NCBI RefSeq assembly: GCF_029227855.1
Contig: NZ_CP074356.1
Source: Escherichia coli
GTDB taxonomy: Bacteria > Pseudomonadota > Gammaproteobacteria > Enterobacterales > Enterobacteriaceae
DNA length: 64,000 bases
Reading direction: 5' to 3' (one strand)
Of this stretch, positions 4,824-38,338 are shown in pieces (position 1 is the first letter of the stretch; each line of letters opens with the position of its first letter). The notes below the pieces were generated by a model. It saw nothing but the letters and a program-made list of their open reading frames with translations, was not told the DNA's origin and made no database searches. Both the position numbers and the translations under genes were made by a program.

Positions 4824-5410
4824 GTGATGAACGCTACCAACAGCGTCAGCAGCGAGTGAAAGAAAAAGTCGATGCTCGTGTGGCCCAGGCCCAGGATGAA
4901 CGCGGTATTATCATCGTCTTTACCGGCAATGGAAAAGGCAAAACCACCGCGGCATTTGGTACGGCAACTCGTGCAGTAGGCCATGGCAAAAAAGTGGGTA
5001 TCGTGCAGTTTATTAAAGGCACCTGGCCTAATGGCGAGCGCAATCTACTGGAGCCACATGGCGTTGAGTTTCAGGTGATGGCAACGGGCTTTACCTGGGA
5101 TACACAAAATCGCGAATCTGATACCGCGGCCTGCCGTGAAGTCTGGCAACATGCCAAACGAATGCTGGCCGATCCTTCACTGGATATGGTTTTGCTCGAT
5201 GAGCTGACTTATATGGTGGCGTATGATTATTTGCCACTGGAAGAAGTGGTGAAGGCGTTAAATGAACGTCCACATCAGCAAACCGTCATTATTACGGGTC
5301 GTGGTTGTCATCGGGATATTCTTGAACTGGCGGATACGGTAAGTGAATTACGCCCAGTGAAACATGCGTTTGATGCCGGTGTTAAGGCGCAAATAGGGAT
5401 TGATTATTAA
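4820..5410 (+). CDS. btuR: cob(I)yrinic acid a,c-diamide adenosyltransferase
   Basis: 196 aa; P-loop-like GNGKGKTTAAFG; translationally coupled to yciK. Confidence 0.9.
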   Translation: MSDERYQQRQQRVKEKVDARVAQAQDERGIIIVFTGNGKGKTTAAFGTATRAVGHGKKVGIVQFIKGTWPNGERNLLEPHGVEFQVMATGFTWDTQNRESDTAACREVWQHAKRMLADPSLDMVLLDELTYMVAYDYLPLEEVVKALNERPHQQTVIITGRGCHRDILELADTVSELRPVKHAFDAGVKAQIGIDY

Positions 5411-5415
5411 GAGAA

Positions 5416-5446
5416 AGCACCTCAAAAGATCGCCTCTTGAGGTGCT
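5416..5446. terminator. inverted repeat between convergent btuR and islet operon
   Basis: Perfect 10 bp stem AGCACCTCAA/TTGAGGTGCT with 11 nt loop, flanked by A/T; lies between the btuR stop and the stop of the 102 aa minus-strand gene. Confidence 0.5.
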
Positions 5447-5462
5447 TTAATCATAATTATAT

Positions 5463-5771
5463 TCAAGCGGCAATAGCAAAACTCAGAATCCGTTTTATCT
5501 CATTCAAATGTCCCTGATATGCTTCATGATTCTCAGCGTCAACATCTTCAATAAATAATATCAGTTCAGTAATTAACGCATTAGCATCGTCATAATTTAT
5601 CCCGGCTAACTCTGGCGAAGTTTCAGTACCATAGTTTATCGTCAGGTTGTTCATAACTGTGAGGATATGGATAAAGTATTTATGACAAACATTGCATGTG
5701 GTTTTATTACCCAAAGTATTATACAGCATATCAAGTAATGCCAGTATTCTACGGTTTTGCACATCGTTCAT
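5463..5771 (-). CDS. hypothetical 102 aa protein, second gene of low-GC islet (acidic C-terminal half, CxxCH motif)
   Basis: ORF track 102 aa MNDVQNRRILALLDMLYNTLGNKTTCNVCHKYF...; strong SD (TAGGAGGT) 7-8 nt upstream of ATG at 5771; only 10 nt after the stop of the upstream lipoprotein gene; AT-rich codon usage unlike flanking genes. No homolog recognised from memory. Confidence 0.6.
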   Translation of the reverse strand: MNDVQNRRILALLDMLYNTLGNKTTCNVCHKYFIHILTVMNNLTINYGTETSPELAGINYDDANALITELILFIEDVDAENHEAYQGHLNEIKRILSFAIAA

Positions 5772-5781
5772 AAAAAACCTC

Positions 5782-6783
5782 CTATAACATTATTCCGCTG
5801 GCAATAAGTAATTTTGCCAGCCCCTCAGACGCCTTTAACCCACTAATGACCTGTGCGCGTAATATTTCATTTAATCTTTTTTGTTCAGCTGCCGTGCGTG
5901 TTTTATTAACGTATAAGCTTTTCAGATAATCACCCTTATCTATAAAGGCATTTAAAGCCTCAATCGCAGGCATGGCAGGTGCCGATGCCTGTAGTCTGGT
6001 TTCATTCACATTGATTACTGAACTTAGAAACTCCTTCCTGTTTTTCAGAGTGTTAAACTCTGTATTCTTAGAGTTTTTAGATGCCGTATTATAATAAAAC
6101 ATATTATCATGCACATTCGCAAAGGTATAATTTTCAATCTTATTGCTTTTTGTATAAATATCATTGCGCAAAACTGCCATGTTCTTTATAAGTCTTACCC
6201 AGTTTTCATCTACCGTTTTGCCTATTTTTCCAGAATTGACTTTAATTATATATAACTCATTGAAATAATTTACCAAATCTTTAACCGCTGCTGCAGATTG
6301 AGCTAAATCTTTGCTATGTGAAACACCAAGTAGTGTTTGTGCGTTGTTTGCGTGATCCAGAGCCTGTTTAAGTAATGCCACTTGCTGACTTTCCGTAGTT
6401 GCCATATCCTTTGTCAGAAGTTCCACATAAGCGCTCATGCTATTAATGACTTCCATTGAAGCCAGTAATTTTTCTTTCTCGAAAGGGACTAATTGTACTT
6501 GTTTTGTATTTGGCCCTGAACGCTGGCATAATTTTCCGCCATTCCCATCACCGCCTATATCAATGGTATAATCAGGTCGCAGGGCACAATCCGGATTAGT
6601 CGCGTAGAAATTAACAAGGAAGTTTTCACGAGAAGCATAGTATTGTTTAAAGAAACTTGCATTCGCCGCTACTGCTTTGTTACCCGCAGTAATAACAGTT
6701 TCAGCTTGTTCGTTTTTCAATGCTTCAGTTGCACAACCTGAAAGCATTAACAGCGATAGAAATATTCCACTATATCTAATCAT
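5782..6783 (-). CDS. hypothetical lipoprotein (333 aa), first gene of low-GC islet; predicted outer-membrane sorted
   Basis: N-terminus MIRYSGIFLSLLMLSGC: basic n-region, hydrophobic core, lipobox L-S-G-C; residue after Cys is Ala (not Asp). SD GAGGTGGG upstream of ATG at 6783. Mature part is Asn/Lys-rich with two further Cys. GC about 28-37 percent in sampled 60 bp stretches versus about 50 percent in flanks. Confidence 0.7.
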   Translation of the reverse strand: MIRYSGIFLSLLMLSGCATEALKNEQAETVITAGNKAVAANASFFKQYYASRENFLVNFYATNPDCALRPDYTIDIGGDGNGGKLCQRSGPNTKQVQLVPFEKEKLLASMEVINSMSAYVELLTKDMATTESQQVALLKQALDHANNAQTLLGVSHSKDLAQSAAAVKDLVNYFNELYIIKVNSGKIGKTVDENWVRLIKNMAVLRNDIYTKSNKIENYTFANVHDNMFYYNTASKNSKNTEFNTLKNRKEFLSSVINVNETRLQASAPAMPAIEALNAFIDKGDYLKSLYVNKTRTAAEQKRLNEILRAQVISGLKASEGLAKLLIASGIML

Positions 6784-6914
6784 AACCCACCTCTTGACGT
6801 TGAATTTATCTCAGATAATTAAATAGTAATGTGGCTATTTCCGGGTATTATTCATAAGCAAGTATGAAATTAAATTAAAATACTGCGACTATTTATCATG
6901 CTTCAAATGAAGAA

Positions 6915-6940
6915 AAGGCCCCGCAGGGCCTTTATTTTAT
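6915..6940. terminator. bidirectional hairpin terminator downstream of rluB
   Basis: GGCCCCGCAGGGCC stem-loop flanked by A-run and T-run just after the rluB stop (minus strand); also bounds the islet promoter region. Confidence 0.6.
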
Positions 6941-6952
6941 ACTTATCTTAAA

Positions 6953-31867: not shown

Positions 31868-33499
31868 TTAGTGCTTCACAATGTACATATTCCGGGTGTA
31901 GGTATTATCCAGCGGATCTTTGCCGGTATAGCCACCAACCCACGGTTTCACCAGACGCGCATTCACGTAGTAATAAACAGGAACAATGGCCGAATCCTTA
32001 TCCAGCTGTTGTTCTGCTTTAGTGTACAGAGCTGTGCGCTGCGCCTCGTCAGTCACTTTCAGCGTTTCCGCCATAATGCTGTCAAAGGCCGGGCTCTTAT
32101 AATGCGCGGTATTCATCGAGCTGTTCGACAGCATGGTGTTCAGGAAGGAAGTTGGTTCGTTGTAGTCTGCACACCAGCCTGCACGGGCCACATCAAAAGT
32201 GCCCTGGTGACGGGTGTCGAGGAACGTTTTCCACTCCTGGTTAACCAGTTTGACGTTTACACCAATGTTTTTCTTCCACAATGAAGAGGCTGCAATCGCC
32301 AGCTTTTTATGCAGATCGGAGGTGTTATACAACAGGTTGATGGTTAACGGTTTGTCTGCGGTATAACCCGCTTCAGCCAGCAGTTTTTTCGCTTCTTCGT
32401 TACGTTTTTCCTGGCTCCAGCCAAACCATTCCGGCTGAGTCAATTTTGCGCCATCAGTATACGGTGGAGTGTAACCATAGGCGGGCATGTCGCCCTGCGC
32501 TTTCACTTTATTAACAATGATATCGCGGTCCATACCCAGTTTCAGTGCGGTACGCACACGTACATCGTTAAATGGCGGTTTCTGGTTGTTAATTTCGTAA
32601 TAATAAGTGCACAGGTATGGATCAACGTGAACTTCGTCCGGGATCTCTTTTTTCAGCTTCTGGAACAATTCGATCGGCATGTTGTTATACGTCATGTCGA
32701 TTTCACCACTACGGTAGCGGTTGACATCGGTAACTTCAGAAGCAATAGGCAAATAGGTTACCTGGTTAATAACGGTTTTCGCGTTGTTCCAGTAAGTCGG
32801 GCTGCGTTCAAGAACGATTCGCTCGTTTACGACCCAATCTTTTAAGGTATAGGCACCGTTGGTGACGATATTTCCAGGCTGGGTCCATTTTTCGCCGAAT
32901 TTCTCGATAGCGGCTTTTGGCACCGGTGAAGTTGATGGGTGAACAAGTAATTTATAGAAGTACGGAACAGGTTCACTTAAGGTGACTTCTAATGTGTGAT
33001 CATCAATAGCTTTCACGCCGAGATCGGTAATCGGTTTTTTCCCTTCAAGAATTTCATCAATACCGGCGATATGCCCATATTGCAGATAACTGGCATACGG
33101 AGAAGCGGTGTTCGGATCAACAGAACGTTGCCAGCTATACACAAAGTCTTGGGCTGTGACTGGCGTGCCATCAGACCATTTCGCATCTTTACGCAAATGG
33201 AAGGTCCAGACTTTCGCGTCTTTATTATCCCAGGATTCAGCGACGCCAGGTGCCGGATGGCCGTCAAGATCGCTGACCAGTAAGCCTTCAAACAGGTCTC
33301 GGCTGATATTAGACTCCGGAACACCTTCAATTTTGTGCGGATCTAATGACTGAACTTCTGAACCATTGTTACGTACCAGCGTTTGTTTTTCCGCCAGTGT
33401 GACGCCTGCGGGTACATCAGCTGCCAGCGCGACATTCCCTGCCATTAGCGCAGCCAGAACGCCAGCTGCTACTAAACTTCTCTTGGTGATGTTGGTCAT
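31868..33499 (-). CDS. oppA: periplasmic oligopeptide-binding protein
   Basis: Start refined to MTNITKRSLVAAGVLAALMAGNVALA (543 aa with signal peptide); long AT-rich 5' leader upstream. Confidence 0.95.
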   Translation of the reverse strand: MTNITKRSLVAAGVLAALMAGNVALAADVPAGVTLAEKQTLVRNNGSEVQSLDPHKIEGVPESNISRDLFEGLLVSDLDGHPAPGVAESWDNKDAKVWTFHLRKDAKWSDGTPVTAQDFVYSWQRSVDPNTASPYASYLQYGHIAGIDEILEGKKPITDLGVKAIDDHTLEVTLSEPVPYFYKLLVHPSTSPVPKAAIEKFGEKWTQPGNIVTNGAYTLKDWVVNERIVLERSPTYWNNAKTVINQVTYLPIASEVTDVNRYRSGEIDMTYNNMPIELFQKLKKEIPDEVHVDPYLCTYYYEINNQKPPFNDVRVRTALKLGMDRDIIVNKVKAQGDMPAYGYTPPYTDGAKLTQPEWFGWSQEKRNEEAKKLLAEAGYTADKPLTINLLYNTSDLHKKLAIAASSLWKKNIGVNVKLVNQEWKTFLDTRHQGTFDVARAGWCADYNEPTSFLNTMLSNSSMNTAHYKSPAFDSIMAETLKVTDEAQRTALYTKAEQQLDKDSAIVPVYYYVNARLVKPWVGGYTGKDPLDNTYTRNMYIVKH

Positions 33500-34236
33500 T
33501 GTTTTTTGGACTCCCTCATTATAATTACTGGTATTAACCAGCATGTGTAATCCCGGATTGGGACCCTGCACAGGCTCGGAGACTTTCTGCTGTCAGGTTA
33601 CTTTATCGTTACGTATTACTATCACCGACTTTATTTATTCTGGTGATTCAGACGATCACCTTATGTCGATTCGTACTGTGTCTCCCCTGTCGAGACACAT
33701 TATTCTTTCGCGACGCTCTTAAATTGTTAATTATTCTCATTACCAATAAAGAATCGTCTGGCGGTTGCCCGGAAAGTACCAAATGCGCTTCTTACTCGCC
33801 AATACATTTTGCAAAATTGTTAAGCAATTCTCTTTTATTGACCGTATCAGAATCTATAGCTTGCATCCATGTCTTAACAAACATCTTTCAATTCAATCAA
33901 ATAGAGATTGGTTAAGCATGTCTATCTTTTCTGATTACAGTTCCAGTAGTGAAATGCACAATAATTTAACAATTGATTATTATTTAGCACTTTCCTCTAC
34001 CAAAGGCAGTGGAATTACTAATATCATTTCAATTATTCTTCAGCAAGCCCAGGATTATGATGTGGCGAAAATAACATGATGGTGAGGAGAAGCAGTTAAG
34101 GAAATCCTTATAACCAACTGTAATTTGAGAAGAATATTTTCACCCATTCCTTTTGCTTTTGATAACTGCGCGGTAACAAAGTAAAAATAATGACGAAGTA
34201 AACGGAGCATGGCAGCTCCGTTTCATTTGAAAGGAA

Positions 34237-35360: not shown

Positions 35361-38036
35361 ATGGCTGTTACTAATGTCGCTGAACTTAACGCACTCGTAG
35401 AGCGTGTAAAAAAAGCCCAGCGTGAATATGCCAGTTTCACTCAAGAGCAAGTAGACAAAATCTTCCGCGCCGCCGCTCTGGCTGCTGCAGATGCTCGAAT
35501 CCCACTCGCGAAAATGGCCGTTGCCGAATCCGGCATGGGTATCGTCGAAGATAAAGTGATCAAAAACCACTTTGCTTCTGAATATATCTACAACGCCTAT
35601 AAAGATGAAAAAACCTGTGGTGTTCTGTCTGAAGACGACACTTTTGGTACCATCACTATCGCTGAACCAATCGGTATTATTTGCGGTATCGTTCCGACCA
35701 CTAACCCGACTTCAACTGCTATCTTCAAATCGCTGATCAGCCTGAAGACCCGTAACGCCATTATCTTCTCCCCGCACCCGCGTGCAAAAGATGCAACCAA
35801 CAAAGCAGCTGATATCGTTCTGCAGGCTGCTATCGCTGCCGGTGCTCCGAAAGATCTGATCGGCTGGATCGATCAACCTTCTGTTGAACTGTCTAACGCA
35901 CTGATGCACCACCCAGACATCAACCTGATCCTCGCGACTGGTGGTCCGGGCATGGTTAAAGCCGCATACAGCTCCGGTAAACCAGCTATCGGCGTAGGCG
36001 CGGGCAACACTCCAGTTGTTATCGATGAAACTGCTGATATCAAACGTGCAGTTGCATCTGTACTGATGTCCAAAACCTTCGACAACGGCGTAATCTGTGC
36101 TTCTGAACAGTCTGTTGTTGTTGTTGACTCTGTTTATGACGCAGTACGTGAACGTTTCGCAACCCACGGCGGCTATCTGTTGCAGGGTAAAGAGCTGAAA
36201 GCTGTTCAGGACGTTATCCTGAAAAACGGTGCGCTGAACGCGGCTATCGTTGGTCAGCCAGCCTATAAAATTGCTGAACTGGCAGGCTTCTCTGTACCAG
36301 AAAACACCAAGATTCTGATCGGTGAAGTGACCGTTGTTGATGAAAGCGAACCGTTCGCACATGAAAAACTGTCCCCGACTCTGGCAATGTACCGCGCTAA
36401 AGATTTCGAAGACGCGGTAGAAAAAGCAGAGAAACTGGTTGCTATGGGCGGTATCGGTCATACCTCTTGCCTGTACACTGACCAGGATAACCAACCGGCT
36501 CGCGTTTCTTACTTCGGTCAGAAAATGAAAACGGCTCGTATCCTGATTAACACCCCGGCTTCTCAGGGTGGTATCGGTGACCTGTATAACTTCAAACTCG
36601 CACCTTCCCTGACTCTGGGTTGTGGTTCCTGGGGTGGTAACTCCATCTCTGAAAACGTTGGTCCGAAACACCTGATCAACAAGAAAACAGTTGCTAAGCG
36701 AGCTGAAAACATGTTGTGGCACAAACTTCCGAAATCTATCTACTTCCGCCGTGGCTCCCTGCCAATCGCGCTGGATGAAGTGATTACTGATGGCCACAAA
36801 CGTGCGCTCATCGTGACTGACCGCTTCCTGTTCAACAATGGTTATGCTGATCAGATCACTTCCGTACTGAAAGCAGCAGGCGTTGAAACTGAAGTCTTCT
36901 TCGAAGTAGAAGCTGACCCGACCCTGAGCATCGTTCGTAAAGGTGCAGAACTGGCAAACTCCTTCAAACCAGACGTGATTATCGCGCTGGGTGGTGGTTC
37001 CCCGATGGACGCCGCGAAGATCATGTGGGTCATGTACGAACATCCGGAAACTCACTTCGAAGAACTGGCGCTGCGCTTTATGGATATCCGTAAACGTATC
37101 TACAAGTTCCCGAAAATGGGCGTGAAAGCGAAAATGATCGCTGTCACCACCACTTCTGGTACAGGTTCTGAAGTCACTCCGTTTGCGGTTGTAACTGACG
37201 ACGCTACTGGTCAGAAATATCCGCTGGCAGACTATGCGCTGACCCCGGATATGGCGATTGTCGATGCCAACCTGGTTATGGACATGCCGAAGTCCCTGTG
37301 TGCTTTCGGTGGTCTGGACGCAGTAACTCACGCCATGGAAGCTTATGTTTCTGTACTGGCATCTGAGTTCTCTGATGGTCAGGCCCTGCAGGCGCTGAAA
37401 CTGCTGAAAGAATATCTGCCAGCGTCCTACCACGAAGGATCTAAAAATCCGGTAGCGCGTGAACGTGTTCACAGTGCAGCAACTATCGCGGGTATCGCGT
37501 TTGCGAACGCCTTCCTGGGTGTATGTCACTCAATGGCGCACAAACTGGGTTCCCAGTTCCATATTCCGCACGGTCTGGCAAACGCCCTGCTGATTTGTAA
37601 CGTTATTCGCTACAACGCGAACGACAACCCGACCAAGCAGACTGCATTCAGCCAGTATGACCGTCCGCAGGCTCGCCGTCGTTATGCTGAAATTGCTGAC
37701 CACCTGGGTCTGAGCGCACCGGGCGACCGTACTGCTGCTAAGATCGAGAAACTGCTGGCATGGCTGGAAACGCTGAAAGCTGAACTGGGTATTCCGAAAT
37801 CTATCCGTGAAGCTGGCGTTCAGGAAGCAGACTTCCTGGCGAATGTGGATAAACTGTCTGAAGATGCATTCGATGACCAGTGCACCGGCGCTAACCCGCG
37901 TTACCCGCTGATCTCCGAGCTGAAACAGATTCTGCTGGATACCTACTACGGTCGTGATTATGTAGAAGGTGAAACTGCAGCGAAAAAGGAAGCCGCTCCG
38001 GCTAAAGCTGAGAAAAAAGCGAAGAAATCCGCTTAA
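35361..38036 (+). CDS. adhE: bifunctional acetaldehyde-CoA / alcohol dehydrogenase
   Basis: 891 aa [35 protein letters not shown]...; Lys/Ala-rich C-tail. Confidence 0.97.
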
Positions 38037-38338
38037 TCAGTAGCGCTGTCTGGCAACATAAACGGTCCCTTCTGGGGCCGTTTTTTTGTTTTACCCAAAG
38101 CAACTTTCCCATAAACCGACAGCATTTGCCTTCATCATATTTACGGCGATGTATAACGCCTACACACAGCGATATTGTACTTTACAGGTCACAAGTCAAC
38201 GTCACTGTAAAAGCGCTCTGTGAGGGGTATAGTGGCGTTAAAGAACTGTCGAGAAGGGTATATACACCGGATGAAGTGAGTAAAACGAACTGACAGGATA
38301 AAAGCGCCCTGCTCACCCTGTCAGTAAAGAAATTCTTA

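Follow-up and report, generated by a model that had tools for sequence, protein, structure and literature searches.

A polymorphic two-gene cassette encoding a predicted lipoprotein and a small helical partner between btuR and rluB of Escherichia coli

A 64-kb stretch of Escherichia coli DNA (hereafter the window, to which coordinates refer unless another locus is named) carries an islet at positions 5411–6952, between btuR and rluB, whose two genes encode a predicted lipoprotein and a small partner. As judged from their sequences, the two genes make up an undescribed family and a self-contained, putatively co-transcribed cassette for an exported lipoprotein and a cytoplasmic helical protein. 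Roughly a quarter of sequenced E. coli carry the cassette, for which there is no name, family, or literature. Its population signature is unusual for a "hypothetical protein," with alleles that appear older than the species and a peak of diversity in the flanking DNA. Alleles that predate the species, lineages that cross species, a bounded hypervariable cassette, and the flanking peak point to long-term balancing selection. In bacteria, selection of this kind usually marks genes that face phages, competitors, or hosts. We tentatively suggest that the lipoprotein has no enzymatic activity and binds or blocks a phage, a bacteriocin, or another antagonist at the envelope, thereby excluding it.

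Across 5426 complete E. coli genomes, the islet was found by megablast in 1237 (22.8%), in one copy each. Copies are essentially all chromosomal and every inspected locus is between rluB and btuR (cobO). An intact empty junction of the K-12 type is present in 4182 genomes, and carriers and empty junctions together account for 5419 of the 5426. The cassette is thus neither a K-12 gene pair nor one of most E. coli (77% are without it), and it appears to have been lost from, or never fixed in, the majority of strains. Carriers have at least three allelic types. Type A, the allele of the window, is in ∼420 genomes, type B, with a lipoprotein of 340 amino acids (aa), is in ∼780, and type C is in ∼40. 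All ST131-labelled genomes among the matches listed have type B. In a few genomes (Ec-U3, NZ_OZ546911.1, and NZ_CP029420.1), the insertion sequence (IS) IS1 is within the islet or replaces it; in Ec-U3 (locus L004, 2288–2985), all that is left of the islet is its last 53 nt, beside rluB.

Differences between allelic types are concentrated in the center of the lipoprotein gene. The segment with the rluB terminator is 95–100% identical in all types, and the promoter/5′ region together with codons 1–72 is 93–100% identical. Across codons 73–295, identity is 42–77% at the DNA level and 52–56% at the protein level. Type C has a central cassette of its own, yet its 3′ end is that of type A, as is its small gene (94% aa identity); the small gene of type B is 72% identical. 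The allelic types are mosaics, and the hypervariable cassette is bounded by recombination.

The central cassette is also far more diverged than neighboring genes. Its synonymous divergence (dS; Nei-Gojobori) is at least 1.6, and hence saturated, compared with 0.10–0.16 in rluB of the same strains. Ratios of nonsynonymous to synonymous divergence (dN/dS) are 0.10–0.24 for the lipoprotein gene and ∼0.1 for the small gene, values low enough to indicate that both genes are functional and under purifying selection. Divergence extends into the flanks. At distances of more than 1 kb, type A and type B strains are 98.5% identical; the 200 nt at the 3′ end of btuR (5210–5410), next to the islet, are 88.5% identical. 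The increase in divergence toward the islet is seen on both sides and also relative to the empty K-12 haplotype, as expected for an old polymorphism with linkage eroded by recombination. Saturated dS, the lineages shared with other species described below, and the peak of flanking divergence argue that the polymorphism, in presence/absence as well as in allelic type, is old. The allelic lineages appear to be far older than E. coli and the polymorphism is probably balanced.

Within btuR, the last 400 nt are 7–11% divergent between haplotypes and relative to K-12, compared with 1–2% farther away, and comparison of type A strains with type B strains gives a dS of 0.44 in btuR and 0.11 in rluB. 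This core gene thus appears to carry diversity that hitch-hikes with the adjacent polymorphism.

Allelic lineages are common to several species, with type A found also in E. whittamii and type B grouping with E. albertii. When 100,044 species were scanned, each represented by one genome, the Escherichia-type clade was found only in these two. The lipoprotein of E. whittamii is of type A (98% aa identity) and is encoded at the same locus, where the islet is 95–97% identical at the DNA level versus 85–90% for yciQ. The cassette of E. albertii has this position too, and its intact proteins share 86% identity with E. coli type B and only ∼66% with type A. In the E. albertii type strain NBRC 107761, the lipoprotein gene is split into open reading frames (ORFs) of 244 aa and 96 aa (locus L026, 2898–3919), apparently a frameshift pseudogene, and yciQ is missing between yciO and rluB (L026, 1096–2728). 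The gene pair also lies between rluB and btuR (cobO) in Citrobacter sp. ANG330 and a further Citrobacter-like contig.

The locus is compact and distinct in composition. ORF coordinates agree with a preliminary description of the window, in which two tightly linked minus-strand genes of 333 aa and 102 aa were recognized. The lipoprotein gene (5782–6783, minus strand) encodes the 333-aa precursor and is followed, after an intercistronic gap of 10 nt (5772–5781), by the partner gene (5463–5771, minus strand). A Shine-Dalgarno sequence, AGAGGTGG, is just before the ATG of the lipoprotein gene at ∼6787–6794, and that of the small gene, GGAGG (5778–5782), overlaps the TAG with which the lipoprotein gene ends. 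The terminator scan found no terminator-like site between the two genes. Strong Shine-Dalgarno sites and the lack of an intervening terminator indicate that the genes form an operon; the overlap of GGAGG with TAG and the 10-nt gap suggest co-transcription, and translation of the two genes is probably coupled. Upstream, on the same strand, is an AT-rich region (6784–6913; 32% GC) with the presumptive promoter and 5′ untranslated region. No strict sigma-70 promoter was called there by the scan, and a weak candidate, TTGAAG-N18-TATTTT, was recognized by eye only.

Base composition supports the preliminary description, which had judged the islet low in GC and AT-skewed in codon usage from sampled segments. 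On exact computation, GC content is 0.366 for 5411–6952 and 0.504 and 0.488 for the 3-kb flanks, and the islet has the lowest value among the 1542-nt windows of the full stretch. GC content at third codon positions (GC3) is 0.32–0.34 in the islet genes versus 0.45–0.55 in neighboring genes. Besides windows that overlap the islet (starts from ∼4751), the sliding scan listed values below 0.42 at ∼33,000–34,000 and ∼38,000–38,200.

Each edge of the islet has a hairpin, and here the preliminary description is upheld in part. It had proposed two intact terminators that preserve both host 3′ ends. Both hairpins exist. The one at 6914–6933, upstream of the cassette promoter region, has an 8-bp GC-rich stem and a T-run and is the intrinsic terminator of rluB; it is listed on the minus strand and scored as terminator-like on both strands. 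The one at 5414–5448 is shared by btuR and the small gene, which converge there. It has 15-nt arms that are 93% complementary and a 5-nt loop, and it is kept across allelic types (0.92–0.98). It has no clean T-run, and the scan did not call it a terminator. In K-12 MG1655, rluB and btuR are 39 nt apart with no genes between them, in line with the preliminary description, and the 39-nt junction bears its own hairpin that is unrelated to that at 5414–5448. Therefore, the entire intergenic segment differs, and the islet does not represent a simple insertion that left the terminators of K-12 in place. Searches of the islet found no tRNA or Rfam family, no convincing or significant repeats at its borders, and no integrase, transposase, or IS among its ORFs, consistent with what had been noted by eye. 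Integration as a site-specific genomic island was rejected for lack of an integrase, tRNA, att repeats, or IS ends at the borders.

The 333-aa protein has the features of an exported lipoprotein. Its N-terminus, MIRYSGIFLSLLMLSG-C17, consists of a signal peptide (aa 1–16) and an LSGC lipobox that conforms to the pattern [LVI][ASTVI][GAS]C of Lgt/LspA substrates. Cys17 is invariant in 30 of 30 relatives and the residue before it is nearly always G or A, in support of the earlier assignment as a lipoprotein. In E. coli, an Ala at position +2 directs a lipoprotein to the outer membrane under the Lol sorting rule. The +2 residue is Ala and not Asp, and the protein is probably in the outer membrane, facing the periplasm. 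The mature part of 316 residues is predicted by AlphaFold2 (AF2) to be an all-helical bundle with a hairpin (predicted local distance difference test [pLDDT] of 79; predicted template modeling score [pTM] of 0.73). The hairpin strands, residues 73–77 and 93–97, are modeled in the region of Cys66 and Cys86, which are presumed to form a disulfide that staples the hairpin.

Variation in the lipoprotein is concentrated in two segments. Per-site entropy is highest at residues 71–100 and 191–240. The first hypervariable segment (6484–6573, minus strand) corresponds to the hairpin loop between Cys66 and Cys86 and has a 7-residue indel between allelic types. The second (6064–6213, minus strand) is within a long helix of residues 184–236 and has 53–68% nucleotide identity between types. 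Across 30 family members, Cys17, Cys66, Cys86, and Tyr119 are the only invariant residues and the alignment retains no catalytic-looking motif. With variation concentrated in the hairpin and one helix, and with the N-terminal helix, C-terminal tail, and partner conserved, a binder or blocker is the likeliest kind of protein.

The 102-aa partner is acidic (isoelectric point of 4.8) and is predicted to be a soluble cytoplasmic protein. A hydropathy check found no signal peptide or transmembrane segment, and the maximum KD19 hydropathy is 0.93. The AF2 model is a confident four-helix bundle (pLDDT of 92.7; pTM of 0.86). All Escherichia and Citrobacter partners have a C26-x-x-C29-H30 motif (5684–5696; residues 26–30), which could be a lineage-specific metal site. 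A heme c-type cytochrome was considered and rejected: CXXCH is lost in Buttiauxella and distant partners, and the protein has no export signal. Likewise rejected was a twin-arginine (Tat)-like reading of the "NRRILAL" N-terminus, in which RR is absent from Buttiauxella and distant partners and the region is too weakly hydrophobic.

Beyond Escherichia, the pair has a broad and patchy distribution. In a word-indexed search, relatives of both proteins were found only in Escherichia and Citrobacter, all named "hypothetical." When 1.84 billion cluster representatives were searched exhaustively with a hidden Markov model of the lipoprotein, there were 59 matches, ∼30 of them full-length (324–357 aa). 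Full-length members in the Enterobacterales are from Buttiauxella, Raoultella/Klebsiella/Rahnella, and Pantoea, and those from elsewhere are from Methylomonas, a Chlorobiaceae lineage of metagenome-assembled genomes, and unidentified GC-rich metagenome bacteria. The second gene recurs with the first. A same-strand ORF of 96–108 aa starts 1–45 nt downstream in nine of nine distant members examined, and a downstream partner is also present in the Citrobacter and E. albertii pairs. The Buttiauxella partner is homologous to that of E. coli (26.7 bits; BLASTP, 9e-8). Partners from Raoultella, Pantoea, Methylomonas, the Chlorobiaceae-type lineage, and GC-rich bacteria form a second, mutually linked group for which homology to the E. 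coli, Citrobacter, and Buttiauxella partners was undetectable by BLAST and hhalign. A database search with the joint partner alignment gained only one new sequence. By this evidence, the pairing is kept in position and size, and common ancestry of all partners is unproven. Because the same pair occurs from Enterobacterales to Methylomonas and the Chlorobiaceae-type lineage, a phenotype in E. coli would annotate the whole family.

Some relatives have additional ORFs. The Raoultella/Klebsiella version has a conserved ORF of 72 aa ∼250 nt upstream (locus L011, 4533–4751; locus L012, 315–533), which could encode a regulator and has no E. coli counterpart. In one GC-rich metagenomic locus (L024, 1585–2865), the partner gene is followed by a 427-aa ORF with a 4-nt overlap, which suggests a three-gene operon in that lineage.

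Genomic contexts of relatives suggest that the wider family is mobile and patchy across phyla. The Buttiauxella copy is in a P2-like prophage, where it separates gpS from gpV, and has a GC content of 0.32–0.40 versus 0.55–0.62. This site is one of three recognized P2 moron sites (PMC6823313). The Raoultella copy is in an island with genes for an integrase, AlpA, FRG, DUF3800, a putative AbiC, and HicB, and VapBC and Fic are encoded close to the Methylomonas copy. Neighbors of a metagenomic copy include an orphan colicin DNase/immunity pair, an IS3-family element, and a TacA antitoxin beside an acetyltransferase. Relative to the surrounding DNA, the GC content of the module is lower by 12–19 points in all Enterobacterales examined other than the Raoultella island, which is already AT-rich. 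Carriage on plasmids was rejected: tblastn against 72,556 plasmids was negative, the sole match being a 4.9-Mb chromosome record. The suggestion that the islet of the window was acquired horizontally is supported in part. Recent acquisition at the level of the strain is not supported, given carriage by 22.8% of genomes at the same locus and in shared lineages. AT-rich relatives in a moron site and accessory islands make a foreign origin in the deep past plausible.

Searches for known systems support the preliminary description in that neither protein belonged to a recognized family. A search of PADLOC-DB v2.0 with both window proteins and 10 distant pair members matched 0 families, with one chance-level hit (E of 0.016). 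Matches of the window proteins to PHROGs are at the level of signal peptides (E of 0.04–0.13), the NCBIfam match of the lipoprotein is likewise a sub-threshold signal-peptide match, and the prophage-borne Buttiauxella pair had no PHROG match. A sequence-profile search of the PDB had no match, and literature searches by protein accession, locus, and topic found nothing on the pair. The predicted folds of both proteins are, as modeled, generic helical bundles, and fold matches at this level include Borrelia surface lipoproteins. The cassette is outside known families, yet it is not a demonstrated new mechanism.

A variable surface on a non-catalytic scaffold, the signature of balancing selection, and contexts typical of genetic conflict make exclusion of an antagonist the likeliest, if tentative, reading. 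Under it, the lipoprotein would act in the envelope as a non-enzymatic binder or blocker and its variable surface would recognize a variable external antagonist, such as an entry or tail protein of a phage, a bacteriocin, or an effector that acts in the periplasm. Exclusion of the antagonist would result, and allele frequencies would be held by frequency-dependent selection. The partner may act cytoplasmically in the same process, or may stabilize or regulate the lipoprotein through its conserved C-terminal region. A bolder proposal, which we consider doubtful, is that the cassette is the founding E. coli case of a widespread two-component envelope immunity system against phages or protein toxins, in which a periplasmic lipoprotein "reader" and a cytoplasmic four-helix partner are maintained as a multi-allelic, trans-species balanced polymorphism. 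Several observations weigh against exclusion. The role of the partner is the weakest step in the account, as a cytoplasmic protein has no obvious job in blocking at the envelope. Placement in the outer membrane comes solely from the +2 rule. Mean dN/dS is well below 1 and positive selection is not demonstrated, in a test that is limited by saturated synonymous sites. Pfam, NCBIfam, PADLOC, and PHROGs have no family for either protein or for distant relatives. Not all contexts suggest conflict, with the Chlorobiaceae-type and Pantoea copies among ordinary genes. Finally, tblastn against 50,697 phage genomes found no copies, nor did three scans of IMG/VR at the sensitivity used. Phage carriage must therefore be rare and the prophage case may be incidental.

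In a rival explanation, the lipoprotein would be an accessory of envelope housekeeping or stress, structural or chaperone-like in the periplasm and perhaps suited to an envelope condition of a particular niche, with the partner as a cytoplasmic regulator or assembly factor. Its allelic diversity would then reflect relaxed constraint and old recombination, not conflict. Purifying selection overall, a neighborhood of core genes without mobility genes in Escherichia and Citrobacter, distant copies amid ordinary metabolic genes, and likeness in fold to DUF3829/imelysin-like helical lipoproteins are in keeping with such a role. We nonetheless regard it as unlikely, given that 77% of E. coli are without the cassette, which is AT-rich and patchy across phyla like mobile cargo, and that relaxed constraint alone would not yield extreme localized divergence, lineages that cross species, and a diversity peak in the flanks. 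A toxin–antidote or abortive-infection pair would have one product that is harmful, either the lipoprotein at the envelope or the four-helix bundle at the inner membrane (MLKL/HeLo/CC-like), and another that keeps it in check until a stimulus, for example phage infection, arrives. The tight operon with a small acidic downstream partner has this look, and distant copies adjoin toxin–antitoxin modules and Abi-type genes. But the products are predicted to be in different compartments, making direct neutralization after export hard to picture, the type C recombinant argues against a specific interface in the variable region, and disruptions by IS1 and the split gene in E. albertii are tolerated; the pair is thus quite improbable as a toxin and its antidote. 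Lastly, the hairpin and helix could be exposed at the cell surface and diversified by pressure from immune systems or host receptors, as in an antigenic or host-interaction lipoprotein. Many carriers are ST131 or other human clinical isolates, which such pressure would account for, variability is localized in loops and one helix, and the generic fold matches include Borrelia surface lipoproteins. This explanation seems very improbable because surface-exposed lipoproteins are exceptional in E. coli, the context has no adhesin or virulence island, and relatives with the same partner gene are present in free-living Methylomonas, Chlorobiaceae-type, and GC-rich metagenome bacteria.

Among characterized and annotated proteins, the lipoprotein most resembles DUF3829/YiiG (PF12889) and imelysin-like proteins in overall form, as these are likewise lipoproteins of ∼330–350 aa with an all-helical bundle. 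The model aligns to entries of the AlphaFold database annotated as DUF3829 or "Lipoprotein" with Foldseek TM scores of ∼0.7. Membership in this family was rejected: neither the window protein (at E ≤ 10) nor any of 30 relatives matched in Pfam, and hhalign of the family profile with K-12 YiiG gave a probability of 1.8%. DUF3829 itself is without a known function, and the resemblance hence yields no mechanism. Periplasmic ligand-binding domains with a four-helix-bundle or helical-bimodular fold, namely those of the TorS sensor and methyl-accepting chemotaxis proteins, are also counted among the closest systems.

In gene order, the cassette is like colicin-Im and CdiA-CT/CdiI, where a large exported protein is followed within a few nt by a small acidic helical protein, and like polymorphic toxin/immunity cassettes it has strong allelic diversity at a single locus. 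It differs in that the variable part (aa 73–295) is central and not C-terminal, and in having no toxin domain, no conserved catalytic residues, and products in different predicted compartments. The preliminary description had raised immunity, exclusion, or effector pairs as speculation. One version, a toxin with a co-varying immunity protein, is disfavored, since the partner does not co-vary with the variable part and type C joins a type-A partner to a different central cassette. Exclusion lipoproteins, such as Llp of T5, Cor of phi80/N15, TraT of the F plasmid, and Ltp of TP-J34, are comparable as exported lipoproteins that are carried as accessory cargo, and the cassette shares with them its AT-richness, patchiness, variable surface, and, in one case, location at a canonical P2 moron site. 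Unlike them, in Escherichia it occupies a fixed core locus of the chromosome, it has no relationship found through PHROGs or PADLOC, and its lipoprotein, at 316 mature residues, is much larger than Llp or Cor. The Imm and Sp proteins of T4 provide a precedent for adjacent exclusion genes whose products act at two steps or in two compartments. Should the cassette be an envelope immunity system, the hsd/immigration-control and O-antigen loci would be its counterparts in population genetics.

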